From a virus (lineage: Duplodnaviria; Heunggongvirae; Uroviricota; Caudoviricetes), in the IMG/VR virus record IMGVR_UViG_2778261505_000002: a stretch of DNA of 64,000 nucleotides. One strand, given 5' to 3'. Below are positions 1,090-63,486 of the stretch, piece after piece. The notes under the pieces were generated by a model. That model was not told where the DNA came from. It did no database searches and saw only the letters and a list, made by a program, of their open reading frames with translations. A program made the position numbers and the translations under genes. Within the stretch, counting starts at the first letter, position 1; every line of letters begins with the position of its first letter.

Positions 1090-4000
1090 TTGGACATGGA
1101 ACAGTTCAAGAAGAAAAAATTACCGCTTCTTATTGCCGGTGCTGGTGGCAAGAAAAGTAAAAGCTCCAGCCGTACCCCGGTTGAAGCTGATGATACTGTC
1201 AATTCTCGTGCTATGGCAGCCATCCTCGACCTTCTTGGCGAGGGGGTTATCGGTGGCCTGGTAAATGGCGCAAAGTCGATCTTCATCGACGATTTACCGA
1301 TCTTGAATGAAGATGGCTCTTCCAACTTCAGCGGTATTACATGGGATTTTCGTGACGGCTCACAAGACCAGACGCCAATGGCTGGTTTTGATTTTGTTGA
1401 AACGCCTAAGTCCGTAAATATTCAGCTTAAAAAAACACACGACGTTACGGTTTCAATCGATAACGATGAAGCTGATCGCGTTCGTGTCATCATGAAATTC
1501 CCCTCTTTACGTAGCGTTGATAAAAGCTCTGGCGATACAAATGGCACTACGGTGAAGTACAAATTCCAGATCGCCAACGCAGACGCAACATTTTCTGATG
1601 TAGTGGCAGAAGGTGAGAAAAGCGTTGATATCACGCTAACGGCAAAGAAAACCGGCGTGTATTACCGTAGCTATGAGCTGAAACTGCCTAAGCCTGGTCG
1701 TGCATACAAGGTTAGGGTGATTCGTCTTACAGATGATAATAGTAGCCAGTACCTCTACAACGACACATGGGTTGATTCCATCGGTGAGATTGTCGACACG
1801 CCAATGAACTACCCTAACTCTGCTCTTGTTGGCTTGAAGGTCAATTCAGAGCAGTTTGGTAGCACAATGCCTTCCCGTTCGTATTTGGTGCGCGGTATCA
1901 AAATCCGAGTACCGTCAAACTACAACGAATACACCAATACTTATGTCGGCGTATGGGACGGTACTTTTAAGCTGTTGTCTTCTTCAAACCCTGCGTGGAT
2001 TCTCTACGATTTGCTTACCAATACTCGGTATGGTCTTGGGCAATTTGTGTCGGAATCCATGATTGACCTCGGCCAGCTCTACCAGATTGGTCGATATTGT
2101 GACGAAGAGGTCGATGATGGCTTTGGGGGTAAAGAGAAACGCTTTGCAATCAATACGCAGATCACCAGTCGACAAGACGCATACCGATTAATTCAGGATA
2201 TTGCCGGTGCATTCCGCGGCATGGTGTTTTGGGCTGGTGGCATGGTTAACATCATGCAGGATAGCCCATCAGATCCGGTAATGATGTTTACCAACTCCAA
2301 CGTCAAAGATGGACTGTTTACCTATAAAGGTTCTGCGCGTAAAGATCGCCCATCCGTTGCGCTCGTAACCTACAACAACAAGGAGGACGGTTATAAGCAA
2401 AATATCGAGTACGTTGAAGATCAGGACGCAATGCGCCGTTATGGTGAGCGTAAAACAGAAGTCGTAGCATTTGGATGTACAAGCCGAGGCCAGGCTCACC
2501 GAGTTGGTTTGTGGCTGTTGTATACCGCCAGAATGGAGTCGGATGTAATTACATTTACTGCCGGCTTAGACGCCTCATTTCTGATGCCTGGTGAAACCGT
2601 TCTGATTCAGAACAAATATCGTGCAGGTAAACGTAACTCCGGTCGAATTGTGGAGTTTACCAAAAACAGCATCACTCTCGATGCGCCTGTGTCGTTAGCT
2701 AAAAGCGGCAGCTTTATTCGGATATTGAATCAGGAAGGCAAAATCGTTGAACGCGATGTTCTTGAAACTGGCGAAAACATAACAAAGGTTACGTTTTCAA
2801 AAGCCCTGTCGTCAGCGGAAACGCCTGTTTTGAACGGTGTCTGGACAATTACAGAACCAGATCTCGAACCTATGCGCGTTCGCATCGTTAACATCGCACA
2901 GGGGGAAACGTCGGGTAGCTTTGACATCACCGCTGTTGAGAACAATCCGTCTAAATATGAGGCAATCGACAATGGTGCAACGCTGATCCCGCAGAATACG
3001 ACGGTATTGGACCCAACTTACTCCAAGCCATCTAATCTGCAAATCACTGAAGGGACTTATCTCTCAAGCCCGGGCAACCTGTCAGTAAAACTGACTGCAA
3101 CATGGGAAGGGAAATCTCCAGAGTATTGGATCAGTTGGCGACGTTCTGATGAAAACAATGTATCGAACTGGCAATCGGCGCGTGTAACCGAAGAGCAATA
3201 CGAAATCGTTAATGTCGCGGAGAATGGACGCTACGACTTCCAGCTGTATGCGGTTTCATTCAACGGTAAAAAAACAGAGATTATCAGTACCGTTTATCAG
3301 GTGTTGGGCACAATGACACCGCCTGATGCCCCAACGTCATTAACGGCCGTTGGAGACTATCGTAATGTGATACTGAATTGGGTTAATCCAGATTCGGTAG
3401 ACCTTGATCACATTAATGTTTACGCATCCCAGACCAACAATCTGGATACGGCGAAACTGATCGCAGAGTCTGCAAGCACCACCTTTACACATGCTGGTCT
3501 TGGGGATAGCGAAACGTGGTATTACTGGGTTCGAGCATCGAACAAGCGAGGTATGTTAAGTCCTCCGAACTCAAACTTGGGTACAGAGGCGACAACTCGC
3601 GATGTACTGTCGTTCCTGACTGGCAAAATTACATCTTCCGAGCTTGGTCAGGCTCTGCTTGAGGACATCAACAGCAAAGTCTCTCAAGAAGCAGTTGACG
3701 AGTTAAATGAGCATATCAACCAGAGCGTCGAATCTTTAGAGGGGGCGGTAAACGACGTTAAGGAAGATATAGCTGAATTAGATAAGCAGTTCAGCGATAA
3801 CCTCGCGGGTTTTGAAATAAAATTCAACGAGCGTAGCGATGCTTTGGAGAACGCACAAACCGAGCTTAAAGGTGAGGTTTCGGCAACGATTAACAAGGTC
3901 AATGAAGCGTTTGAAAAAATTGATGCTACTGATGCTGCAATTGTTGAAATCGAAAACACCGTATCTGAACACGATAAAGCTCTCGCTAATACAGTCGAGG

Positions 4001-5820
4001 CAATAAAGGCTGCAAGAGATGAAGCGGCGGCTCTTATTGCTAAGGAAAGCGAGGCTCGTGTTGAAGGTGATGCTGCAAACGCTAAACAACTGGAAGTGTT
4101 GCAGTCAACGGTAGAGGAAAGCTCCGCTGCCGTTGAAGAAATGAAAAAGACGGTTGCAGAGGTCGATCGTGCCAGTGCAGAACTGACTACGAACATTGAG
4201 GCTTTGGCCAAAACAAATATTGACCTGGCTCTTCGTCAAGATGAAGACCAGCACAAGCAGATGGTCAATAACGCGAAGATCGCAACAACACAGAAAACCT
4301 TTGCTGATGATATGTCTGCAATGGCCACGAAGGTTGAGGAAATTCGCGTAGAAATTGGCGAAGATATTAAGGCCAGTATTCTGGAAGAGTCCACCGCTCG
4401 TGCCGATGGCGATGAAGCGTTGGCAAAGCGTGTCACTCAGCTGCAATCTAAGTTTGAAGGAGATATCAGCGCGGCGATTAGTACAGAGCAGGAGGCTCGT
4501 ACATCTGCCGATGAAGCTCTGACGACACAAATCACTCAGCTTGAGTCGAAAGTAAGCAACGATATCGTCGCAGCTATTAAGGAAGAGCAAGAAGCCCGAG
4601 CAACGGAAGATTCGGCTCTGGCAAGCCAGATCACCCAACTTCAGGCAAAGGTTGATGATGATATTTCTGCTGCAATACGCAGTGAGCAGGAGGCCCGAGC
4701 AAGCGGGGACTCTGCGTTAGCCAAACAAATAAACCAGCTTCAGTCAAAGGTTGACGGTGATATATCCGCTGCCATCACTCAGGAGCAGGAGGCCAGAGCA
4801 AGTGCTGACCAGGCGCTCTCACGAGAAATTAACAGCCTGCGAGCACAAACCGGAACTGATATTGCCGCAGCGGTTGCTGTAGAGACAAAAGCAAGGACTG
4901 ATGCCGATAGTGCATTGTCTACCCAGATTACGTCTCTTACAGCAAAAGCTAATGATCTCAAGGCGTCTCTTGCCAGAGAAACAACGGCTCGTGCAGATGG
5001 TGATACCGCTTTAACAAAAGAGGTTTCAAGTTTAAAAGCACAGACAGCGAAAGATATTAGTGCGGCCGTTGCAGTTGAAACGCAGGCTCGAACTGATGCT
5101 GACTCGGCGTTGTCGTCTCAGATCACCAAGCTGACCTCTCAATACAAAGAGGATATTAAAGCGGCTGTAGCAACCGAAACGAAAACGCGTACAGAGCAAG
5201 ATGCTGCATTGGCGACTCAAATCACAAACTTAGAGTCTCAAACGGCAGCCAACATTTCCGCGGCGGTCACAACTGAAACGAAAGCGAGAACGCAGGCAGA
5301 TAATGCTCTGAGTGGGCGAATCGATACTCTGAAAGCAGAGGTGAATGGAAATACCGCGACAATTCAACAGCAGGCAACAGCTATTGCTGATACCAACAAA
5401 AAAGTGTCAACCGCGTGGACGTTGAAAATGGAGACTTCAACGAGCGGAGGGCAGAAGTATGTTGCCGGTATTGCGCTTGGTATTGACACCACTGGGCTAT
5501 CTCAGTTTTTGGTTCAGGCGGACAGGTTTGGTTTGGTCAACTCTGTTAACGGGAAGATCACAACGCCATTTGTTATCGAAAACAGTATCGCCTATATGAA
5601 TGGAGCGTATATCAAGGATGGCACAATCACCAATGCAAAAGTAGGCGATCTGCAATCTACCAATTTTGTTAGCGGTAGATCTGGATGGCGGTTCGGCAAA
5701 AATGGAACGCTTGAGATCAACGGTAATAGCGGCGGCAATGGGCGATTGGTTATAAATGGTCAGCGGATTGACGTTTATGACGATAACAACGTCTTACGAG
5801 TAAGAATTGGCCGTCTGTGA
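1090..5820 (+). CDS. Tail tip / host specificity protein, lambda gpJ-like (central tail fibre), with a coiled-coil tandem-repeat domain
   Basis: 1576 aa; N-terminus resembles lambda J; FN3-like middle section; about ten tandem ~33-aa repeats (EQEARxxxDxALxxQIxxLxSKVxxDIxAAI) between ~4380 and 5340. Confidence 0.8.
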   Translation: MDMEQFKKKKLPLLIAGAGGKKSKSSSRTPVEADDTVNSRAMAAILDLLGEGVIGGLVNGAKSIFIDDLPILNEDGSSNFSGITWDFRDGSQDQTPMAGFDFVETPKSVNIQLKKTHDVTVSIDNDEADRVRVIMKFPSLRSVDKSSGDTNGTTVKYKFQIANADATFSDVVAEGEKSVDITLTAKKTGVYYRSYELKLPKPGRAYKVRVIRLTDDNSSQYLYNDTWVDSIGEIVDTPMNYPNSALVGLKVNSEQFGSTMPSRSYLVRGIKIRVPSNYNEYTNTYVGVWDGTFKLLSSSNPAWILYDLLTNTRYGLGQFVSESMIDLGQLYQIGRYCDEEVDDGFGGKEKRFAINTQITSRQDAYRLIQDIAGAFRGMVFWAGGMVNIMQDSPSDPVMMFTNSNVKDGLFTYKGSARKDRPSVALVTYNNKEDGYKQNIEYVEDQDAMRRYGERKTEVVAFGCTSRGQAHRVGLWLLYTARMESDVITFTAGLDASFLMPGETVLIQNKYRAGKRNSGRIVEFTKNSITLDAPVSLAKSGSFIRILNQEGKIVERDVLETGENITKVTFSKALSSAETPVLNGVWTITEPDLEPMRVRIVNIAQGETSGSFDITAVENNPSKYEAIDNGATLIPQNTTVLDPTYSKPSNLQITEGTYLSSPGNLSVKLTATWEGKSPEYWISWRRSDENNVSNWQSARVTEEQYEIVNVAENGRYDFQLYAVSFNGKKTEIISTVYQVLGTMTPPDAPTSLTAVGDYRNVILNWVNPDSVDLDHINVYASQTNNLDTAKLIAESASTTFTHAGLGDSETWYYWVRASNKRGMLSPPNSNLGTEATTRDVLSFLTGKITSSELGQALLEDINSKVSQEAVDELNEHINQSVESLEGAVNDVKEDIAELDKQFSDNLAGFEIKFNERSDALENAQTELKGEVSATINKVNEAFEKIDATDAAIVEIENTVSEHDKALANTVEAIKAARDEAAALIAKESEARVEGDAANAKQLEVLQSTVEESSAAVEEMKKTVAEVDRASAELTTNIEALAKTNIDLALRQDEDQHKQMVNNAKIATTQKTFADDMSAMATKVEEIRVEIGEDIKASILEESTARADGDEALAKRVTQLQSKFEGDISAAISTEQEARTSADEALTTQITQLESKVSNDIVAAIKEEQEARATEDSALASQITQLQAKVDDDISAAIRSEQEARASGDSALAKQINQLQSKVDGDISAAITQEQEARASADQALSREINSLRAQTGTDIAAAVAVETKARTDADSALSTQITSLTAKANDLKASLARETTARADGDTALTKEVSSLKAQTAKDISAAVAVETQARTDADSALSSQITKLTSQYKEDIKAAVATETKTRTEQDAALATQITNLESQTAANISAAVTTETKARTQADNALSGRIDTLKAEVNGNTATIQQQATAIADTNKKVSTAWTLKMETSTSGGQKYVAGIALGIDTTGLSQFLVQADRFGLVNSVNGKITTPFVIENSIAYMNGAYIKDGTITNAKVGDLQSTNFVSGRSGWRFGKNGTLEINGNSGGNGRLVINGQRIDVYDDNNVLRVRIGRL

Positions 5821-5913
5821 TGGTGGAAAAAAAATTTTATATCGGTAAAAATAGGTAAGTATCTACTTAATGGCGGGCAAGGATAGCCCGCCAAATCAAG
5901 GAGCATATTCAAC

Positions 5914-23699: not shown

Positions 23700-23774
23700 G
23701 ATGGTGTAGCTCAGCGGTAGAGCAGTTGGCTGTTAACCAACTGGTCGGTGGTTCGAATCCACCCACCATCGCCA
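23700..23774 (+). tRNA. tRNA-Asn (anticodon GTT)
   Basis: Cloverleaf folded by hand: 7-bp acceptor stem GATGGTG/CACCATC, anticodon loop CTGTTAA, GGTTCGAATCC T-arm, encoded CCA. Confidence 0.85.
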
Positions 23775-23779
23775 ATTTA

Positions 23780-23866
23780 GGGGAGTTAGTCCGTAGAGGT
23801 AGCGGTGTAGACTGTAAATCTACTGTCATTGCGACTCGGGTGGTTCGACTCCATCACTCCCCACCA
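23780..23866 (+). tRNA. tRNA-Tyr (anticodon GTA), long variable arm
   Basis: Acceptor GGGGAGT/ACTCCCC, anticodon stem-loop GTAGA-CTGTAAA-TCTAC, long variable arm, T-loop TTCGACT, CCA; D-arm pairing is atypical. Confidence 0.75.
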
Positions 23867-23870
23867 AATT

Positions 23871-23946
23871 GCCGGTTTAGCTCAGTTGGTAGAGCGCCTG
23901 CCTTGTAAGCAGGATGTCAGCGGTTCGAGTCCGTTAACCGGCACCA
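23871..23946 (+). tRNA. tRNA-Thr (anticodon TGT)
   Basis: Acceptor GCCGGTT/AACCGGC, D-arm GCTCAGTTGGTAGAGC, anticodon loop CTTGTAA, T-loop TTCGAGT, CCA. Confidence 0.85.
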
Positions 23947-24163
23947 ACACAACAGGAAAGAGCATTGAAAACCGCCGAGACTGCCCTGTTTTAAGCGTAA
24001 GTCCGTGCAAACGTCATACAGTGCTCTTTTCGTTGTGGTTGATGCGCAGACTGATGCGCGGAAAGAAATGCCCCAGCGACACACGAGGCGAGTTCACACA
24101 CTGCAATGCAGTCAGTAGCCGGGGTCGCTAAGCCGGAGATCAGTACCGGTAACCACAACAATT

Positions 24164-24250
24164 GGAGAGTAGGGAGCATGGTGCTCAAGCGGTCTTGAAA
24201 ACCGTCCCATTGTGCAAGCGATGATGGTTCGATTCCATTACTCTCCGCCA
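24164..24250 (+). tRNA. tRNA-Ser (anticodon TGA), type II with long variable arm
   Basis: Acceptor GGAGAGT/ACTCTCC, anticodon loop CTTGAAA, 17-nt variable arm, T-loop TTCGATT, CCA. Confidence 0.75.
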
Positions 24251-24405
24251 GACACAGCGTTGAGCGGTTTGGCCTTTTAATCACCCAGATTAAGACTCCG
24301 CTAACATAAACCAGACCGCTCAACGCTGTGATAGACAATTACGGCAGACGTTCTTAACCATAGCTTGCTAACATCCTAGCAACACTTTTTTTCAGCGCAA
24401 AATTC

Positions 24406-24428
24406 AAAGGGGCTTCGGCCCCTTTTTT
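24406..24428 (+). terminator. Rho-independent terminator
   Basis: AAAGGGGC-TTCG-GCCCCTTTTTT: GC stem, tetraloop, T-tract; closes the tRNA cluster. Confidence 0.85.
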
Positions 24429-24471
24429 GCAACTGAAAGAGTCAAGTCTACGAACTTTGTAGGAAGAAATA

Positions 24472-24822
24472 ATGACCAGCAAAGAGAACACACCACTAAA
24501 AGTCACCCCTGAACACATTGAACAACTCATTCAAAGTGAACATTATTTCACTGCATATGATGCCAGCCACGGGGATAACTTCATCTCTGTTTACAATTCA
24601 AAAACAGATATCGACAAAGGTCATGAGTCGTTAAAACTCTTAACGTTCTGCGTTATGGTTCTCAAAAATGGATATACCGTAACGGGAAAATCTGCGTGCG
24701 TAAGACCAGAAATCTTCAACTTTGATGTTGGTCGCGAGTACGCTCGAAAAGATGCTATCGATCAAATCTGGCCCCTGGAAGGCTATCTCCTGAAGCAAAA
24801 GTGGCATGAGGCAAAGCAATGA
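24472..24822 (+). CDS. Hypothetical protein
   Basis: 116-aa ORF; stop overlaps the glutaredoxin start. Confidence 0.45.
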   Translation: MTSKENTPLKVTPEHIEQLIQSEHYFTAYDASHGDNFISVYNSKTDIDKGHESLKLLTFCVMVLKNGYTVTGKSACVRPEIFNFDVGREYARKDAIDQIWPLEGYLLKQKWHEAKQ

Positions 24823-30941: not shown

Positions 30942-33900
30942 ATGAAGGCACTGATGGTTCGAACTGACTTCTCACTTGGGGAGTCGGCTCTAAAAGCAGA
31001 AAACGCGGTGAAGATTGCCAGAGAAGCTGGCTACACCGCTGTAATTTCAGCAGATAGCATGAATATTGCGAGCGTTATTCCACTACAACGTGCCGCTGGT
31101 GACGACATGGCGGTTATTTGTGGTGTGAAACTAAACATTGTTGATGATCCCACATACGAGCACCGGGCTAAACTTGCTAAAGAATCTATGAGATGTATGG
31201 AATCATTAGAGCGAGGACGTAACTACTCGTTTACCGCTCTAATTAAAAATGAGAAAGGATATCGCGACATCTGCGAACTAATGACGGCGGCCAACACACG
31301 AGAACAGTTCTACTTTGTACCGCGTCTCTCGCTCGAACAGTTGGTTTCTACATATGCCAAAGGCAACATCATCCTGCTTACTTCCGACATCGGTAGCGTG
31401 TTCCAACGCAACGATTTTGCAAAAATCATAAGCACACTGATTACAGCGGGTGGAAAAGACAACTTCTATAGTGTGGTTTATCCGCACCCTACCCCATTCT
31501 ACGACCAGATTAACGTCCGGGCGATGAAAGTCGCCAGCGCATTGAAAATAGAGCCAGTGGCGTTCTATCCCGCTTATTACGAATCGATCGACGATGCAGA
31601 CATTAAAGACATTGCGCACATGGTTACGAACAACATCAAAATCGACCAGCCGCATCGTCTGCGTATCCCCCACCAGCGAGATAACGCCGTCAATGGTCGC
31701 CGCCATCTCCTTGAGGCGCTTAAAGCCTTCTCCGTTCGCATGGATGTGCCGGTAACAGCTGCAATGGCCTCAACAACGCAGGATACCATTATCGATGCCT
31801 GCACATGGCGCTGGCATGAATTGCCGCCAGCACTGCCAAAGATGGCAGACGACGAGCCTGCAACGCTGATGAAACTGGCTGTTGCAGGGCTGCGTAAACG
31901 TCTTACCACAAAAGAGTTTGGATACACACCACCTGCTTCTGAGAACAGGGTTTATGTTGAGCGGCTAAAGTACGAAATGGACACGCTGACTCGCCTGGGA
32001 TTCTGTGGTTACTTCCTGATGGTACGCGATCTGATGAATCACAGCCGTGAAACTGGCATTCCTGTCGGGCCTGGTCGTGGTTCCTCCGCTGGATCTCTGG
32101 TGGCATGGTGCATAGGCATAACCAACGTCGACCCAATCCGTCACGGTCTTCTGTTTGAGCGTTTCATCAACCCTGAGCGTCTCGACTTGCCAGATGCGGA
32201 TTTGGACTTCAGCCAGGCACGTCGCCATGAGGTGATCGAGTATCTGAATGAACGATACGGCGAAGATTACGTTGCAGGTATTCCTAACTTCACATATCTG
32301 GGCGCAGCCTCTGCACTACGTGACACCGCTCGTATTTATGGTGTGGAGTCCGCAGATATGGCGGTATCAAAAGAGCTGAGGAACGTCGAGGATGATAGCC
32401 TTCCATTGGAAGAGCTGCGCGAACAACTGGCAAGTCTCGACAAATACGCGACAAAATACCCTGATGCATTCAATGCAGCCTGCAAGTTACAAAGCCTTAT
32501 GCGTGGCTTTGGTAGACATGCGGCAGGGATGATTGTAGCAGGTGTTCCTCTGACAGAACGTACACCGGTTGAACGACGTGGTGACGCGCGTTGTATCGCA
32601 TTTGACAAGCGTTACTGCGAGGCTATGGGCCTAATTAAGCTGGACGTGCTTGGCCTGGCAACTCTCGATTTGCTCGATAGTGCAAAACGCTACATAAAAG
32701 AGAACACAGGTGAAGATATCAATCTTGATGCCATTTCTCTTGAAGATCGCAAGGTGCTGGATGGTTTTGCTGCTGGGTACACTCAAGGTGTTTTCCAGCT
32801 TGAATCAGGCCCAATGCGCAAGCTGCTTAAAGATTTAGGTGGTGGAATTGAGCCAATGAGCTTTAAAACGGTCGTTGCTACGACTGCGCTCTTCCGGCCG
32901 GGGCCAATTCAGTCAGGCATGTTGGATGATTATGTTTCTGTCGCCAAAGGCTTTATGACGCCGGAATCATTACACCCCGTTCTTGATGAACTTACCGCAG
33001 AAACAAATGGCGTGATTCTTTATCAGGAACAGACGATGAACGCGACTCGATTGCTTGCTGGCTTCACAATGGCTGAAGCTGACGGCGTTCGTAAAGCGAT
33101 CGGCAAAAAAGACATGGAGAAAATGAAGAGCATGGGTGAGAAGTTCATCGTTCAGGCTCAAGCTGGCTGGATAGACGTTGAGCTGGAAGATGGCACTACA
33201 CAGCGCATTCACCGTGCGGAACATTTTAAATGCGAAGACGGAACACTGAAAACTGTCGAAGAGGCACTTGAGTACGGCGCAAAACTACCTATAAACGCAG
33301 TACGCGTTACAGCGTCACATCCAGGGCTATCAGAGATGAAAGCGAAGGAGATCTGGACCGCATTCGAAAAGAATGGTGCCTACCAGTTCAACAAATCACA
33401 CTCTGTTGCTTACTCCTTAATCAGTTATCAATCTATGTGGTTGAAAACTCATTATCCCGCAGAGTTTTTCGCTGCTGCTCTCACTATTCTTGGCGAAGAT
33501 AAACACCAGGGGCTGGTTAAAGATGCGCTGACCTATGGTATTCGCGTATTGCCACCAGACGTTAACGTGTCATCTAACCGAATCGAGATCCGCACGCTTG
33601 AAGATGGCAGCCAGGTGCTGTATGCGCCCTTCTCTGCTGTGAAAGGGTGTTCTGAGAATGGCTGCCAAGCCATCATGAGAGCGCGAGAAAAAGTTGGCGG
33701 CAAATTCGAGTCACTGGCGCAATTCGAAGAAGCTGTCGAGAAACGTGCCTGTAATAGTCGAGTGCGCGAATCACTGCAAAAAGTAGGTGCGTTTGCATCC
33801 ATCGAGCCAGGTAGTCTGCCAGCAACTGATCCAGAGCGTCTCCGCGACCAGGCTGAATTGATGGGAAACCTTGTCATAGACGCAGTTAAAGCCTCACGTC

Positions 33901-35134: not shown

Positions 35135-36163
35135 ATGTCTAAGACATTACTTGATTTGCTTAACAAAACTCGTGAAGACATTGCCGCCAAACGTGGTAAC
35201 AACGTTGATCTGACTCGCTTAAAAGACGGCGTCAACTATATTCGCATCTTCCCGAATAAAGACGACCCAAACGGTAAGTTCTTCCAGACTTTCGGTATGC
35301 ACTACGTTAAGTATCAGAACGAGGAAGGTAAAGAAGCAACCAACGCTTATATTTGTGAGCAACATACTCACGGTCGCGCTTGTCAGCTATGCGAAATGGT
35401 GATGGAAGGTCGCGCTCGTCACAAGGGTAACAAAGCAATGGAAGAACGCATCGGTCAAATGCGTGCCACTCCTCGCTACCTGGTCAACGGCATTCTTTCT
35501 GCTCGTGAGGATTTCGCAGATGCTGAGAAATGCCAGTTAATCGAGCTGCCGTCTACTGTATTCGATGATATCTGCAAAGCAATCACCGAAGACATCGCTG
35601 ATGATATCGGCAATCCACTGAGCAAAGAGGAAGGCTACGCATTCCTGATTAAACGTACTGGCTCTGGTCGCGATACCAAATATGACGTCTCGCCTAAGCG
35701 TAAAGTCTACAAAGGCGATATCGAAGATAAATTCTGGAATACCCAGCATGATCTGATCGCATACGCAAATCAGGCTGATGAAACTCGTCTTCTGTCGACA
35801 GTTCGCACTATGGGTCGTCTGATTGGCATCGCTGCACCAACTGCCGCAGCATCTGCACCAGCAATTTCCTCAACCGCGAAAACATCGGCTGCGGCACTAC
35901 CTGGATTTGGCTCTGTCACTGGTCATACGGAGGGTGCGACTGCTGTAGCTACCGCTCATACCCCAGCTTCTGAACCAACCAGTCTGGTTGATGAAGAAAT
36001 CCTCCGTGCCGTTGAAACTGAATTTAAACCAGAAGCAAGTCCCGCTGCCGTTGCAGTATCAGTCAAAGAGTCTGAAGCAGTCGCAGCGACATCTGTAGCA
36101 GCCGCATCTGCGACGGAAGATGAAGGTCTGGATGACCTACTGAGAGAGCTGGACTCTCTGTAA
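35135..36163 (+). CDS. Single-stranded DNA-binding protein, T4 gp32-like
   Basis: IRIFPNKDD motif and His/Cys cluster (CEQHTHGRACQLC) matching the gp32 zinc-binding subdomain; acidic C-terminal tail (EDEGLDDLLRELDSL). Confidence 0.75.
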   Translation: MSKTLLDLLNKTREDIAAKRGNNVDLTRLKDGVNYIRIFPNKDDPNGKFFQTFGMHYVKYQNEEGKEATNAYICEQHTHGRACQLCEMVMEGRARHKGNKAMEERIGQMRATPRYLVNGILSAREDFADAEKCQLIELPSTVFDDICKAITEDIADDIGNPLSKEEGYAFLIKRTGSGRDTKYDVSPKRKVYKGDIEDKFWNTQHDLIAYANQADETRLLSTVRTMGRLIGIAAPTAAASAPAISSTAKTSAAALPGFGSVTGHTEGATAVATAHTPASEPTSLVDEEILRAVETEFKPEASPAAVAVSVKESEAVAATSVAAASATEDEGLDDLLRELDSL

Positions 36164-39732: not shown

Positions 39733-40557
39733 ATGCCCAACCACATTACAAACGAAATCCGAGTCATAGGTGGTACAAATAAACAACGCTTAGATTTCAT
39801 ACGTGCCATAACTAACAAAAAAGGTCTAATTGACTTTAATACCATTTGCAGACGTCCGAAAAGTATAGAAATGGAAGAAAACAATCATATCAGGCGCATG
39901 GCCTCTGCAATGGCGGGCGAAACAGTTTACGACCACATGTTCGGTGAATTAAAAACTCCAGAACAGGTCGAATTAGCTATGCGTGAATCAGGAATGACAC
40001 GCAAGGAAATTCGCAAAATCAAAGAGCAGGCTCTTATGCGGCTTGAGAATTATCGTCGCTATGGCTATTACTCATGGTTTGACTGGTCGCGAGCTAATTG
40101 GGGAACAAAATGGAATGCCTACAACATCGAAATGCCCGTAAAACGTATCCCTACACGTATTAAGTACGGCCATAATTTCCGCCATACACACGTTCGAGCA
40201 TATGCAAAACGAATCTATAAAAAACGTCTTGCAAGACATGCCGCAACTGGTGGTGAGTTGGTGATTCGCTTTGAAACAGCATGGTCTATGCCAAAACCAA
40301 TTTATCAGGCGATGGCTAGAAAGTTCCCGCACCTTGAGTTTGTAATACGTTATGCAGACGAAGACTTCGGCAATAACTGCGGATTCATTTTACTTCGCAA
40401 CGGCAAATGGGAATATGACTACATTGCACCGGCGAATAACGAACAATCGTCAGAAGAAAAAATCAAATGGTGCAAGTTCGCCTTTGAGTTATGTTGTCCT
40501 GGTATCACTCCACAAGAATACGGTCTAAATGAAAAATACGAATACGCCGGATATTAA
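39733..40557 (+). CDS. Hypothetical protein (Trp-rich SWFDWSRANWGTKWNA motif)
   Basis: 274-aa ORF preceded by the AAAACAATTTGTT palindrome; family not recognised. Confidence 0.45.
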   Translation: MPNHITNEIRVIGGTNKQRLDFIRAITNKKGLIDFNTICRRPKSIEMEENNHIRRMASAMAGETVYDHMFGELKTPEQVELAMRESGMTRKEIRKIKEQALMRLENYRRYGYYSWFDWSRANWGTKWNAYNIEMPVKRIPTRIKYGHNFRHTHVRAYAKRIYKKRLARHAATGGELVIRFETAWSMPKPIYQAMARKFPHLEFVIRYADEDFGNNCGFILLRNGKWEYDYIAPANNEQSSEEKIKWCKFAFELCCPGITPQEYGLNEKYEYAGY

Positions 40558-40589
40558 TGCTTTACGCACGAAGCATAGAGGTTAAGAAG

Positions 40590-41330
40590 ATGAAAAGAAA
40601 AATTGAAGAACCAAAAACGACCCTTAATAAACATGGGGAAAAAATTCAAACACACCCAGCGTTCGGTCTTGTGAAAACAAGCCGTGTTAGCACGACTGGC
40701 ATTCGTCTATTTGATTCAGAACTGGAACATAGAGACTATATTGAAATAGGCGTTTACGAGGCTGAACTATCCTTGGATAATGAACGAACCCGGCCACAAA
40801 GGAGTAGCAATAGACGGCCTTTAGTTGAAATTAGACTTAGCCAGGCACAATGGGCTGCTATGGTTAGCAGTTTTGGTGTGGGCGAAGGTGTGCCATGCAC
40901 TATTTCATATAAAACCATTGGCGACTCAATTAGAGTTCATGATATTGCCGAGCAAAAAAGTATTCGACAAAAATTCAACGATCAAATAAAGGCAGCTACG
41001 AATAGTGAGATTGATCGACTTAATCAGCAAGTATCAGAGCTAGGTGAGCTTGTGAAAAAAGGAAGAGCTGGAAAACGTGACCTTGAAGAACTATATAGAA
41101 AACTTGCATCTGCTGTAGCTAACCTTCCTGAAAATCTGTGCTTTGCTACCGAATTAATGCAGGAGCAAATGGATGAAATTGTCTCATCTGGAAAGGCGGA
41201 GATTGAGGCGTATGTTGCAGGCACTGTTATGCGTAAAGGGTTAGCAGCATTAGGCACAGAATCATGCATTAACGATGCTCCTACTGTCTCTATCACCAAA
41301 ATGGAAAGCGGTAAAGAATTACTGCCATAA
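40590..41330 (+). CDS. Hypothetical protein with central coiled coil
   Basis: Start set at ATG after GAGG RBS (track ORF begins at 40557); no motif recognised. Confidence 0.4.
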   Translation: MKRKIEEPKTTLNKHGEKIQTHPAFGLVKTSRVSTTGIRLFDSELEHRDYIEIGVYEAELSLDNERTRPQRSSNRRPLVEIRLSQAQWAAMVSSFGVGEGVPCTISYKTIGDSIRVHDIAEQKSIRQKFNDQIKAATNSEIDRLNQQVSELGELVKKGRAGKRDLEELYRKLASAVANLPENLCFATELMQEQMDEIVSSGKAEIEAYVAGTVMRKGLAALGTESCINDAPTVSITKMESGKELLP

Positions 41331-61933: not shown

Positions 61934-62164
61934 ATGTCATACCCGACTAATGTCGTTGCGCTCGTAGAGAGCGATTTTCTGGCCCAGGCTCGTGAAATGA
62001 TGAAAGATCGTGAGCAGGCTTTCAACTTGTACGAATGGGCAATTAAGTGCTTGCATCTTGGCGAGCATCGCGAACTTGTTGAACAGCTTTTAGGTGAGTT
62101 GATCAATGAGGTGTTTGCCTTGAATGTTCAACTACATGGTAGAGAAAATAATCAATCACAATGA
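61934..62164 (+). CDS. Hypothetical small protein
   Basis: Start at ATG after AAGGAAAC (track ORF begins at 61910). Confidence 0.4.
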   Translation: MSYPTNVVALVESDFLAQAREMMKDREQAFNLYEWAIKCLHLGEHRELVEQLLGELINEVFALNVQLHGRENNQSQ

Positions 62165-62747
62165 TAGATAAGTACAAACTATTCATAAAGTGAATTGTAA
62201 GTGCTAAGATCTGATAGTTTCCAGTCGTAGACTGGAGACTCGACCTGATGGGTGGGGGTAAGCGTCACTGGCGTCAGGTTTAAAAAAAGCTCACTACCAG
62301 CGTAGAACTGGTGCCGTTTAGGTGTCGGGGAAGGGGGAACCAAAGTGAGCAGAGACAAGGGTCACTTTATGATTGTCGAGTCTGGGGTGTTTCGAGAGGT
62401 TGAATCCAGTACTCCCCTTCATAAAGTGTGGGAAGATCTCGGTTCTGGGGTGCTGTCATCCATAACTTCCCAAGTCTAAGCTGGCAGTAGACTTAGACCA
62501 TAACTTTTCAGGTTATGAAACGACCAGGTTGGTGAGAGATTTTTATACTCACCTCCCTGGGAGAGTATTACCTGAAAAGACAACCTCTCACTTCGTTCGA
62601 GGTGAACTTCACTCACTTCGTTCGTTCAGTTCAGGTTTATAAAAACCTGTTCTGGGAAGTAATTTGTTTATTTTAATAATTATTAACACGCACGCGTGTG
62701 CGCACGCGCGAGGAAAAATCGGCGCGGCGCTTGATTCAGGAGTTTAT

Positions 62748-63338
62748 ATGACGACGAAGACACCAGCCCGATCGCAAGCAAAAACTCGCAAAAAAGCCAA
62801 AAACAAAAATTCCCCCCGCACCAATCCCACAACGCCTGTCGTAGAGTTCAATCCCCAGCTTAAAACCGTGAAAATCTTTAGTGATGGCTCTTGCCTTAAA
62901 AATCCGGGTGGCCCGGGCGGTTACGGTATCGTTCTCCAGTATCGTGGTGAGGAACGCGAGTTCTCAGATGGTTTTCATAGCACCACCAATAACCGCATGG
63001 AGATGATGGGGGCACTTATCGGGCTGGAGCGTTTGAAATATCCATGCAACGTTATTTTGCACTCTGATAGCCAGTATCTGAAAAACGGCATGACACAGTG
63101 GATGAAATGGTGGAAACGCAATGGATGGATGACTTCTGACAAAAAACCAGTAAAGAATGTTGATCTGTGGAAGCGTCTGGATGAGGCCGCAAGTCGACAT
63201 AATGTTCGCTGGAAGTGGGTTAAAGGTCACGCCGGGCATCGTGAAAATGAAATATGTGATCGACTCGCGAAGATCGCAGCTTTTTCAGCAGCAGATATGC
63301 CTCACAAGAAAGATATTGGTTTTGTTTATAATAAATAG
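62748..63338 (+). CDS. rnhA: Ribonuclease HI with a basic N-terminal extension
   Basis: [60 protein letters not shown] closely match the enterobacterial RnhA motifs as I recall them; start set at ATG after GGAG (track ORF begins at 62664). Confidence 0.85.
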
Positions 63339-63486
63339 TAAGTAAGTGTTTACCTATCATTTTAAATCATGTATCTTATCGGCGTCAGGATGACAATGTG
63401 TCGGTAAGACACAGTTCCAGGATGGAACGAGAAAGGCGGCTGGCAATCGCCAGCCGCAACTCTTTCTGACACTGGATGGAGTCCAC

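Follow-up and report, generated by a model that had tools for sequence, protein, structure and literature searches.

The stretch of DNA analysed here (the window; 64,000 nucleotides (nt) of the IMG/VR virus record IMGVR_UViG_2778261505_000002) is an SSU5-like phage-plasmid, and its region 62165-62747 sits between the stop codon of a small open reading frame (ORF) and the ATG of rnhA, the gene for RNase HI. We revealed that the region holds an RNA gene that is independently transcribed, non-coding, unannotated and absent from Rfam 15. The reading that we judge probable is that ~62217-62662 on the plus strand is a free-standing gene for a highly structured noncoding RNA (ncRNA) of ~450 nt, which belongs to the core of SSU5-like phage-plasmids of Enterobacteriaceae and acts in trans. 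rnhA and a G+C-rich tract in front of it (GC tract) are neighbours of the RNA, not parts of it. The gene and the small ORF are as follows.

~62217-62662, plus strand: noncoding RNA gene; the 5' end is taken from the predicted promoter and the 3' end from the point where conservation stops (the true 3' end could lie as far as ~62690)
61934-62164, plus strand: small ORF of 76 amino acids (aa), PHROG 5343, function unassigned, directly 5' of the RNA gene

In the segment 61700-63500 of the window, identity is 99.5% with Escherichia phage CMS-2020a, 98% with phages Cyrano and PhiR41_1, 81% with Salmonella phage SSU5 and ~78% with Klebsiella phage-plasmids. A 611-nt query over the region matched 687 plasmids in PLSDB, from at least 10 genera (Klebsiella 310, Escherichia 195, Enterobacter 88, Salmonella 49, Citrobacter 24, Cronobacter 10, and others). 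Among complete E. coli genomes the block was found in 232 of 5,426 (4%), it was plasmid-borne in 232 of 234 places, and no annotated feature lay beneath the match in the 12 E. coli records listed. In the core 62239-62665 (427 nt), identity was 90.6% to Klebsiella, 94.6% to SSU5 and 89.5% to L076 relatives, whereas in the same pairs it was 74-76% for dam, 74-77% for the small ORF and 76-80% for the rnhA core. The immediate flanks were also less conserved, with 57-61% in the 74 nt upstream and 72-83% in the 83 nt downstream. Since 90-95% identity stands against 74-80%, the non-coding 427-nt block is far more constrained than the surrounding proteins. The loops and junctions of the RNA are as conserved as its stems. 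Relatives described above are referred to as group A; a divergent group B, consisting of a plasmid of Cronobacter sp. JZ38 and of IMG/VR and metagenome contigs, is ~69% identical. Relatives of the small protein encoded upstream yielded two more lineages, L232 (82%) and L233, which is the Buttiauxella plasmid CP110081 (89%), and when a genome collection was scanned with the same protein, two contigs from Kluyvera, both of group A, were obtained. Groups A and B were all that pattern scans of IMG/VR and the metagenome collection returned. Three IMG/VR contigs that match only a 22-nt pattern (L101, L110 and L137) were set aside as chance, because in L110, the only one examined, the pattern lies inside a 442-aa ORF of an apparently unrelated contig. 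No paralogue of the RNA was found elsewhere in the genome, and the covariance model R1 (P4-P8) recovered known copies only. We also considered a miniature inverted-repeat transposable element and rejected it; no terminal inverted repeats were seen at the block ends, by eye only.

The region does not encode a protein. Only ORFs of 59 aa or fewer are present in 62165-62747, and the 44-aa ORF at 62345-62479 is intact in just 29 of 45 distinct relatives. No ORF is common to the lineages, and the variable columns show no 3-nt periodicity (74/61/57). For lack of a shared ORF and of codon periodicity, the protein-coding reading was rejected. A scan for tRNA and tmRNA found none in the region.

Comparative analysis revealed that the block folds into a conserved secondary structure. 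RNAalifold with 45 distinct sequences gave 97 pairs, of which 31 were compensatory, and 99.4% of cells were paired. Slid-register controls had 2-7 compensatory pairs; the covariation score of 0.255, compared with 0.037-0.066 in the slid controls, was reached by none of 500 shuffles. A curated structure of 101 pairs, including the long-range helix P9 and a pseudoknot, was evaluated with 18 sequences including L232 and L233; 95.1% of cells were paired, 30 pairs were compensatory (versus 3-10) and the score was 0.272 (versus 0.043-0.085). Groups A and B give the same helices when they are folded separately. Thus, the region carries the compensatory base pairs that mark a structured ncRNA. The single-sequence fold of the plus strand has -165.5 kcal/mol with z = -4.2 (dinucleotide shuffles), and the minimum free energy of the minus strand is -138.1 with z -4.8. 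In the alignment, the RNAalifold energy is -101.5 for the plus strand versus -66.2 for the minus strand, and paired columns contain 171 G·U cells versus 25 A·C cells. Because G·U outnumber A·C 171 to 25, the plus strand is the RNA strand. The predicted fold has ~13 helices and ~100 base pairs, with the following parts.

62216-62240, plus strand: P1, the 5'-terminal hairpin, with an 11-bp stem in the window
62243-62279, plus strand: P2 hairpin, 13 pairs, of which 4-5 compensatory, 99.6-100% of cells paired
62290-62349, plus strand: P3 domain, with closing helix GCUCAC/GUGAGC, two inner hairpins and G-rich GGGGAAGGGGG
62363-62428, plus strand: P4 domain, in which P4 (62363-71 with 62420-28) encloses P5 (62382-86 with 62405-09)
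62429-62472, plus strand: P6 domain, in which P6 (62429-35 with 62466-72) encloses P7 (62448-52 with 62457-61)
62474-62498, plus strand: P8 hairpin, 4 compensatory pairs, 100% of cells paired
62504-62579, plus strand: long arm P9 (62504-12 with 62571-79), which encloses P10
62524-28 with 62556-60 and 62531-36 with 62548-53, plus strand: P10, inside P9
62587-62599, plus strand: first copy of CUCACUUCGUUCG, 5' of P12
62603-62647, plus strand: 3' domain with P12 (62603-08 with 62628-33), the loop of which holds the second copy of CUCACUUCGUUCG (62612-62624)
62634-38 with 62643-47, plus strand: P13, which covaries within group A
62394-62402, plus strand: 5' strand of a candidate pseudoknot, GAGAGGUUG, in the P5 loop
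62581-62589, plus strand: 3' strand of the candidate pseudoknot, CAACCUCUC, with alternative partners at 62351-55 and 62599-602

Individual helices covary in different lineages. Three of the five closing pairs of P3 are compensatory, and L232 loses one pair on both sides. P4 has 3-5 compensatory pairs, three of them in the Buttiauxella copy L233; P6 has three and P7 one, with 100% of cells paired. The P9-P10 arm was recovered from groups A and B folded separately, and L232 has lost a C-G pair from both strands of P9 and gained an A-U pair in P10. P12 has three compensatory pairs, and L232 covaries fully there (UGAACU/AGUUCA to AGAGCU/AGCUCU). The two pseudoknot strands are perfectly complementary over 9 nt, with six pairs invariant, one compensatory (L232) and one mismatched (L233); we propose this pseudoknot (62394-402 with 62581-89) as a weakly supported element predicted from the alignment. 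RNAalifold also gave a 3-bp helix (62358-60 with 62571-73), which is in conflict with P9 and was removed as an artefact of the alignment; H15 (CCUC/GAGG) and the small P14 were kept out of the curated structure as competitors of the pseudoknot and P13. The P6/P7 internal loop contains AGAUCU (62433-62438), which is self-complementary and is kept in all lineages; the group B version is GGAUCU, which self-pairs through G·U. The same motif is a Dam GATC site in the DNA, and in the RNA it could be an RNA-RNA kissing site.

The RNA gene is preceded by a sigma70-type promoter. The predicted elements in the window and in its relatives are listed below.

62182-62210, plus strand: sigma70-type promoter, with -35 TTCATA at 62182-62187, a 17-nt spacer and extended -10 TGcTAAGAT
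62202-62203 and 62205-62210, plus strand: TG and hexamer of the extended -10
Promoter in the window: -35 TTCATA, -10 TAAGAT
Promoter in Klebsiella: -35 TTTACA, -10 TAGAAT
Promoter of the SSU5 type: -35 TTTAAA, -10 TAAAAT
Promoter in group B: -35 TTTACC, -10 TAACAT

The pattern TT[TC]A.., exactly 17 variable nt, and TGn-TA..AT was found in every lineage, in ~76 distinct upstream sequences that span groups A and B, L232 and L233. The elements are fixed in position while the spacer sequence drifts, and their distance lies in the 16-18 nt of a sigma70 unit. A consensus promoter scan missed the copy in the window because its score was only 8/12, below the threshold. From this arrangement, the transcript is predicted to start near 62217. 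P1 lies 5-7 nt past the -10 in every lineage. Its 11 different sequences each form a hairpin of 6-11 bp, with -5 to -17 kcal/mol. As the shape is kept while the sequence is free, this suggests a protective 5' stem-loop, and P1 may shield the transcript from decay.

A 20-bp palindrome with the consensus ATAGGTAAGT|ACTTACCTAT adjoins the promoter, and the copy at the RNA gene is as follows.

62165-62184: degenerate copy of the palindrome, abutting the -35 hexamer

Its centre lies at about -42.5 from the predicted start. The copy is degenerate in the lineage of the window and near-perfect in other lineages (cGGTAAGTACTTACCa). The promoter of the RNA may be controlled from this position, if the palindrome serves as an operator. 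The palindrome is also dispersed in the window, with 13 matches versus 1.2 expected (in none of 100 shuffles was this number reached), and 14-nt cores are located at 5854, 11232, 15979/15983, 22931, 26791, 35034, 35273, 38554, 46891, 51575, 61127 and 63341. Nearly all are intergenic and 5' of plus-strand genes; 35273 is within the ORF 35135-36163. The palindrome often takes up the whole interval from a -35 to a TATnAT -10 and is then centred near -19.5. The phage-plasmid repressor may use it as an operator, in the way that P1 has dispersed C1 operators.

Published RNA-seq data showed that the region is transcribed in a lysogen. Misson et al. re-annotated the phage-plasmid Cyrano of E. coli LF82 with RNA-seq (PMC9928086). 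CYRAN_81, a spurious 44-aa ORF, lies inside the RNA (Cyrano 78657-78791, corresponding to ~62344-62478 of the window), and it was listed as 12-fold above the local background (PMC9928086, Table 1). The S1 Table of that paper gives log2(fpkm+5) values (fpkm, fragments per kilobase per million) for two replicates per condition. In BLB (LB overnight), CYRAN_81 had 6.8/6.9, CYRAN_80 (the small ORF) 3.36/3.13 and CYRAN_82 (RNase H) 2.59/3.44 (PMC9928086). The values for the same three genes were 9.3/9.0, 4.62/4.2 and 3.87/3.83 in B1, 6.9/6.9, 4.1/4.07 and 4.42/4.27 in B6, 9.0/8.2, 5.81/5.14 and 4.7/4.01 in MB1, and 10.35/10.3, 5.22/5.01 and 5.02/4.78 in MB6 (PMC9928086). The S1 Table names BLB only, and we took the other codes as the DMEM (Dulbecco's modified Eagle medium) and macrophage samples of the paper; the signal is high in B1, MB1 and MB6. 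From these published values, the RNA region is ~10-60 times above both neighbour genes in lysogenic Cyrano in all five conditions. This indicates a discrete RNA in the plasmid state, which neither comes from the upstream gene nor continues into rnhA at that level. The profile of CYRAN_81 parallels those of the repressor (CYRAN_45) and the integrase (CYRAN_44). In the same data set, the "hypothetical protein" CYRAN_43 was the strongest reported moron of Cyrano, 723-fold above background (PMC9928086). By coordinate offset, CYRAN_43 (Cyrano 40268-40822, ~23955-24509 of the window) lies beside and partly under the tRNA cluster 23700-24250. Its signal is most likely tRNA, because a minus-strand ORF overlaps a plus-strand tRNA cluster. 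Since this minus-strand ORF scores 723-fold over plus-strand tRNA genes, the published counts appear to be unstranded.

The RNA did not match known families. A scan with Rfam 15 (4,227 models, including RNAI, ROOL, GOLLD, group I/II introns, 6S, tmRNA, RNase P and HEARO) found none for the region; at gathering thresholds the only matches in the window were tRNAs at 23.7-23.9 kb, and when E was relaxed to 10, the region had nothing beyond weak miRNA- or HCV-like hairpins of 15-26 bits, against cut-offs of at least 47. An Rfam scan had been suggested in the preliminary description, and it returned no family. Structure conservation and a published transcript signal are present. The group B copy likewise had nothing meaningful in Rfam, and no description of the RNA was found in the literature searched. 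ROOL, GOLLD, OLE and raiA RNAs (PMC5737381, PMC12286853) are similar in that they are several hundred nt long, have many covarying helices and conserved unpaired nucleotides, were found by comparative analysis with no obvious function, and are associated with a phage-type element. Unlike them, the present RNA is restricted to one Enterobacteriaceae phage-plasmid family, and it does not match their covariance models. ROOL and GOLLD adjoin prophage tRNA genes, whereas the present RNA is 38 kb from the tRNA cluster. The self-complementary (A/G)GAUCU in the P6/P7 loop could be a lead to homo-oligomeric assembly like that of ROOL and GOLLD. 6S RNA and CsrB/CsrC share with the present RNA that they are stand-alone, stable, folded trans RNAs that bind protein and are conserved beyond their stems, but there is no Rfam match to them and no array of GGA hairpin loops or 6S-like open-promoter mimic is evident.

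A search for an antisense target in the phage-plasmid genome gave 12 nt as the longest complementarity (E about 1). Both copies of CUCACUUCGUU (62587-62597 and 62612-62622) are complementary over 11 nt to AACGAAGUGAG, which is located at L228:16103-16113 (PhiR41_1 32102-32112) in the ribosome-binding region of a small gene (ATG at L228:16123). This complementarity is within chance (E about 4).

These observations bear on how the RNA might work. The RNA would be released near 62662-62690 by processing or by non-canonical termination, would act in trans as a folded RNA in the plasmid or lysogenic state, and would most likely bind one or more proteins. We favour a trans-acting, likely protein-bound RNA because its loops are as conserved as its stems, no complementarity exceeds 12 nt and the downstream gene is exchangeable.

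The 3' side of the RNA is a site where genes are exchanged. The features there are as follows.

62663-62685: A+T-rich spacer, poorly conserved in sequence and variable in length
62686-62710: alternating purine-pyrimidine G+C-rich tract ACACGCACGCGTGTGCGCACGCGCG, 25 nt, with CGCACGCG twice 12 nt apart and ACGCGT
~62722: left boundary of the cargo slot, ~26 nt before the rnhA ATG and just 3' of the GC tract
62748-63338, plus strand: rnhA, encoding RNase HI with a basic N-terminal extension of 37 aa; one among several cargo genes that alternate in the slot

The GC tract is the longest alternating run in the window, the next being 14 nt; in 200 mononucleotide shuffles the longest run had a mean of 16.3 and a maximum of 26. 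Judged by its composition, the tract is predicted to be prone to form Z-DNA. It is kept in relatives with other cargo but is prone to insertions and deletions (deletions in pHCM2, L009 and L012), and group B keeps only ...GCGCGAGG.AAAA of it. It lies outside the conserved RNA core and adjoins the cargo junction. The tract may serve as a protein site, belong to a hairpin in the 5' untranslated region of rnhA, or be a recombination-prone sequence. Homology with relatives that lack rnhA ends at 62674 (L009, L012), 62718 (L011) or 62721 (L010), and therefore the cargo slot starts ~26 nt before the rnhA ATG. rnhA follows the RNA in most relatives. In its place are two GNAT acetyltransferases on the opposite strand in L009 (an Enterobacter plasmid; 2172-3220), BetT in L012 (another plasmid; 2265 onward), a hypothetical protein in L004, L010 and L011, and, in L233, an OLD-family TOPRIM/AAA ATPase with a UvrD-like helicase on the opposite strand (3395-5231), which is Gabija-like. 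From these comparisons, the slot 3' of the RNA reads as an exchangeable cargo hot spot. The synteny of the small ORF and the RNA holds in all lineages including the divergent group B.

The product of rnhA matches PF00075 at residues 40-178 (E 9.8e-45, 152.6 bits, cut-off 25.8) and E. coli RNase HI chains (1rch/2rn2 group) at residues 38-180 (E 1e-62). Since these matches begin at residues 38-40, the basic extension is ~37 aa. The catalytic carboxylates of RNase HI are D10, E48, D70 and D134 in E. coli numbering. In the alignment with the solved chain they are identical (ifsDgs, nnrmEmm, hsDsqy, eneicDrla). The RNase H gene of SSU5 (SSU5_090, L002:3844-4608) is annotated with 765 bp, versus 588-609 bp in relatives. 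Its start is probably mis-called, because the additional 5' sequence reaches back across the GC tract and into the RNA gene from its 3' side. A different arrangement was observed in L229 (Logan SRR28417476; the same in L230), where 713 bp (2726-3437) occupy the same slot and are followed by two RNase_H genes; the homologue of the small ORF in L229/L230 is 69% identical. The L229 region folds with z = -6.4, and only AGGUGUCGGGGAA is common with the RNA. No similarity to the RNA was detected in it by nhmmer, the covariance model (with filters off too), Rfam or PLSDB, and Rfam gave nothing meaningful for it in its own right. A different structured RNA may fill the slot in L229.

Every feature that the preliminary description had reported from the sequence of the window is present: the ORF-free stretch, the hairpin, the GC tract and the RNase HI gene were all found, with coordinates that differ by no more than 1-2 nt. 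The hairpin TCCAGTC-GTA-GACTGGA is at 62220-62236 and widens to the 11-bp stem 62216-62240 of P1. The alternating tract, given as 62688-62712, is ACACGCACGCGTGTGCGCACGCGCG at 62686-62710 (25 nt, a shift of 1-2 nt) with the ACGCGT palindrome at 62692-62697, the ATG of rnhA is at 62748, not 62749, and the basic extension is ~37 aa where ~30 had been estimated. Its interpretations fared differently. That the region could encode a small RNA was right as to an RNA gene and wrong as to size, as the structured RNA is a single large one of ~450 nt, driven by a promoter of its own. A recombination junction exists, but elsewhere, 3' of the RNA; the region itself is the most conserved stretch of the neighbourhood. 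The implied tie to rnhA is unsupported, since in relatives without rnhA the RNA is still found beside the upstream small ORF. Finally, the gene called host-like and host-derived is a clear RNase HI homologue, but its product is in PHROG 531, a phage family; no sign of a recent host capture was seen, and the nucleotide identity of rnhA to host genomes was not compared.

Other explanations of the region were weighed against a free-standing trans-acting RNA. It is unlikely that the RNA is a trans base-pairing regulator or sponge that tunes lysis-lysogeny or host physiology, like P1 c4, P4 CI or prophage sponges, through short unpaired motifs such as the repeated CUCACUUCGUUCG or GAGAGGUUG/CAACCUCUC. 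Conserved unpaired motifs and a direct repeat are present, lysogeny expression parallels the repressor and integrase mRNAs, and the repeat has the 11-nt complementarity to the ribosome-binding region of the PhiR41_1 small gene; but that match is within chance, nothing exceeds 12 nt genome-wide, and 450 nt with 13 helices are far beyond the needs of known base-pairing RNAs. P1 c4, N15 CA RNA and P4 CI RNA are likewise ncRNAs of phage-plasmids or satellites expressed in lysogeny, but they are ~70-200 nt long and antisense to nearby targets. We regard as rather unlikely a primer or R-loop RNA of a replication origin, like ColE1 RNA II or the T4 oriF/oriG transcripts, in which a G-rich transcript would stay hybridised near 62663-62685 and phage or host RNase HI would trim a primer for the phage-plasmid polymerase. 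ColE1 RNA II is roughly 550 nt. The present RNA is near it in size and is likewise a structured plasmid transcript of ~0.5 kb, with an RNase HI gene adjoining in most members and G-rich RNA followed by an A+T-rich stretch. GC skew is +0.38 to +0.48 at 62250-62400 with conserved G runs, the unusual GC tract lies downstream, the region is transcribed in the plasmid state, the RNA ends a block of DNA-metabolism genes, and two RNase_H genes follow the other structured region in L229. There is, however, no homology to RNA II and no Rfam match to RNAI (E up to 10) or another family. No antisense RNA I promoter is conserved, the sole minus-strand promoter-like match (62223-62194) being in an unconserved stretch, and the neighbour protein is not Rom-like. 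In PLSDB the plasmids are typed as IncFIB (RepA), conservation is lowest in the A+T-rich "origin" part, and the RNA is retained where another gene has replaced rnhA, although host RnhA might stand in. The cumulative GC skew rises monotonically with no turning point at the locus, a signal that is uninformative.

A cis-acting leader of the downstream mRNA, working by attenuation, by processive antitermination (as HK022 put) or by mRNA stabilisation, is quite unlikely. The RNA is co-oriented with rnhA and the following plus-strand genes, there is no canonical terminator before rnhA, and no plus-strand promoter-like site for rnhA was found. Against this, the downstream gene varies and is even on the opposite strand in L009 and L233, the RNA-seq signal falls ~10- to 60-fold from the RNA to rnhA in all five conditions, and conservation stops ~85 nt before the rnhA ATG. 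A DNA-level element, that is, a cluster of protein sites, a recombination hot spot prone to cruciforms or Z-DNA, or an origin recognised at the DNA level, with hairpins as by-products, is very unlikely. Both strands fold better than shuffles (z -4.2 and -4.8), the longest alternating tract of the window and the cargo junction are at the 3' side and the dispersed palindrome is at the 5' side; but the G·U bias (171 versus 25 A·C) and the RNAalifold preference of 35 kcal/mol for the plus strand indicate selection on one RNA strand, the long-range helices P3, P4 and P9 covary, and the region is transcribed far above its neighbours.

Several points weigh against a free-standing trans-acting RNA. 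Between the RNA and rnhA no canonical terminator was seen, so read-through into downstream genes is possible. Expression is moderate (log2 fpkm 7-10) and below that of housekeeping RNAs. The S1 Table carries neither strand nor transcript ends, and the strand of the RNA is assigned from comparative evidence alone. The structures were partly derived from the same alignments that were used to count covariation, and a few deep splits (A/B, L232 and the Klebsiella lineage) account for most of the compensatory changes. The trans-acting, protein-binding mode is our best guess, reached by exclusion. In addition, both the window and L229, which carry unrelated versions of the locus, have RNase H genes after a structured region, and this recurrence hints at a functional link that a free-standing RNA does not use.

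Going beyond a free-standing trans-acting RNA, we tentatively raise the possibility that the family, which includes pHCM2 of S. Typhi, SSU5, the Klebsiella IncFIB phage-plasmids and Cyrano of adherent-invasive E. coli (AIEC) LF82, represents a new class of large ornate RNA. It would be a lysogeny-expressed core element with a dedicated role, either as a ribonucleoprotein (RNP) or ribozyme-like RNA or through an R-loop with RNase HI in the control of replication or copy number, and it would occupy a slot in which the module is replaceable, as in L229.

The RNA locus closes a plus-strand block of DNA-metabolism genes for DHFR, a kinase-like ATPase, an epsilon-like exonuclease and Dam. The 76-aa protein is three helices in its AlphaFold model; it has no Pfam match, and the model has no PDB match at E of 0.001 or better. 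A Rom/Rop-like role for this neighbour was rejected, given neither a Pfam match nor a PDB fold match. Four tRNA genes (tRNA-Asn, Tyr, Thr and Ser) are located at 23700-24250, ~38 kb off. Downstream of rnhA there is one further hairpin.

63436-63457: G+C-rich hairpin with a perfect stem of 9 bp, GCGGCTGGCAATCGCCAGCCGC, flanked by T-rich sequence on both strands and located in the gap from rnhA to the following ORF

The sequence of this hairpin suggests a bidirectional terminator.

Clinical E. coli, Klebsiella, Enterobacter and Salmonella Typhi commonly harbour SSU5-like phage-plasmids, whose cargo includes resistance and defence genes. The non-coding stretch that is best conserved in these elements is the ~450-nt RNA gene, which is unannotated and is transcribed in the lysogenic state. 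Annotation pipelines leave the locus blank or call spurious ORFs there, and CYRAN_81 was scored as a "moron" protein gene. The RNA also marks the left edge of the cargo hot spot, which is useful for comparative genomics. Large bacterial RNAs that are this conserved and structured are few, and most of them proved biochemically unusual. E. coli K-12 lysogens exist (PhiR41_1), and the size of the RNA is suited to probing and to cryo-electron microscopy (cryo-EM). As a candidate regulator, the RNA could act in SSU5-like phage-plasmids on plasmid maintenance, on the choice between lysis and lysogeny, or on replication.

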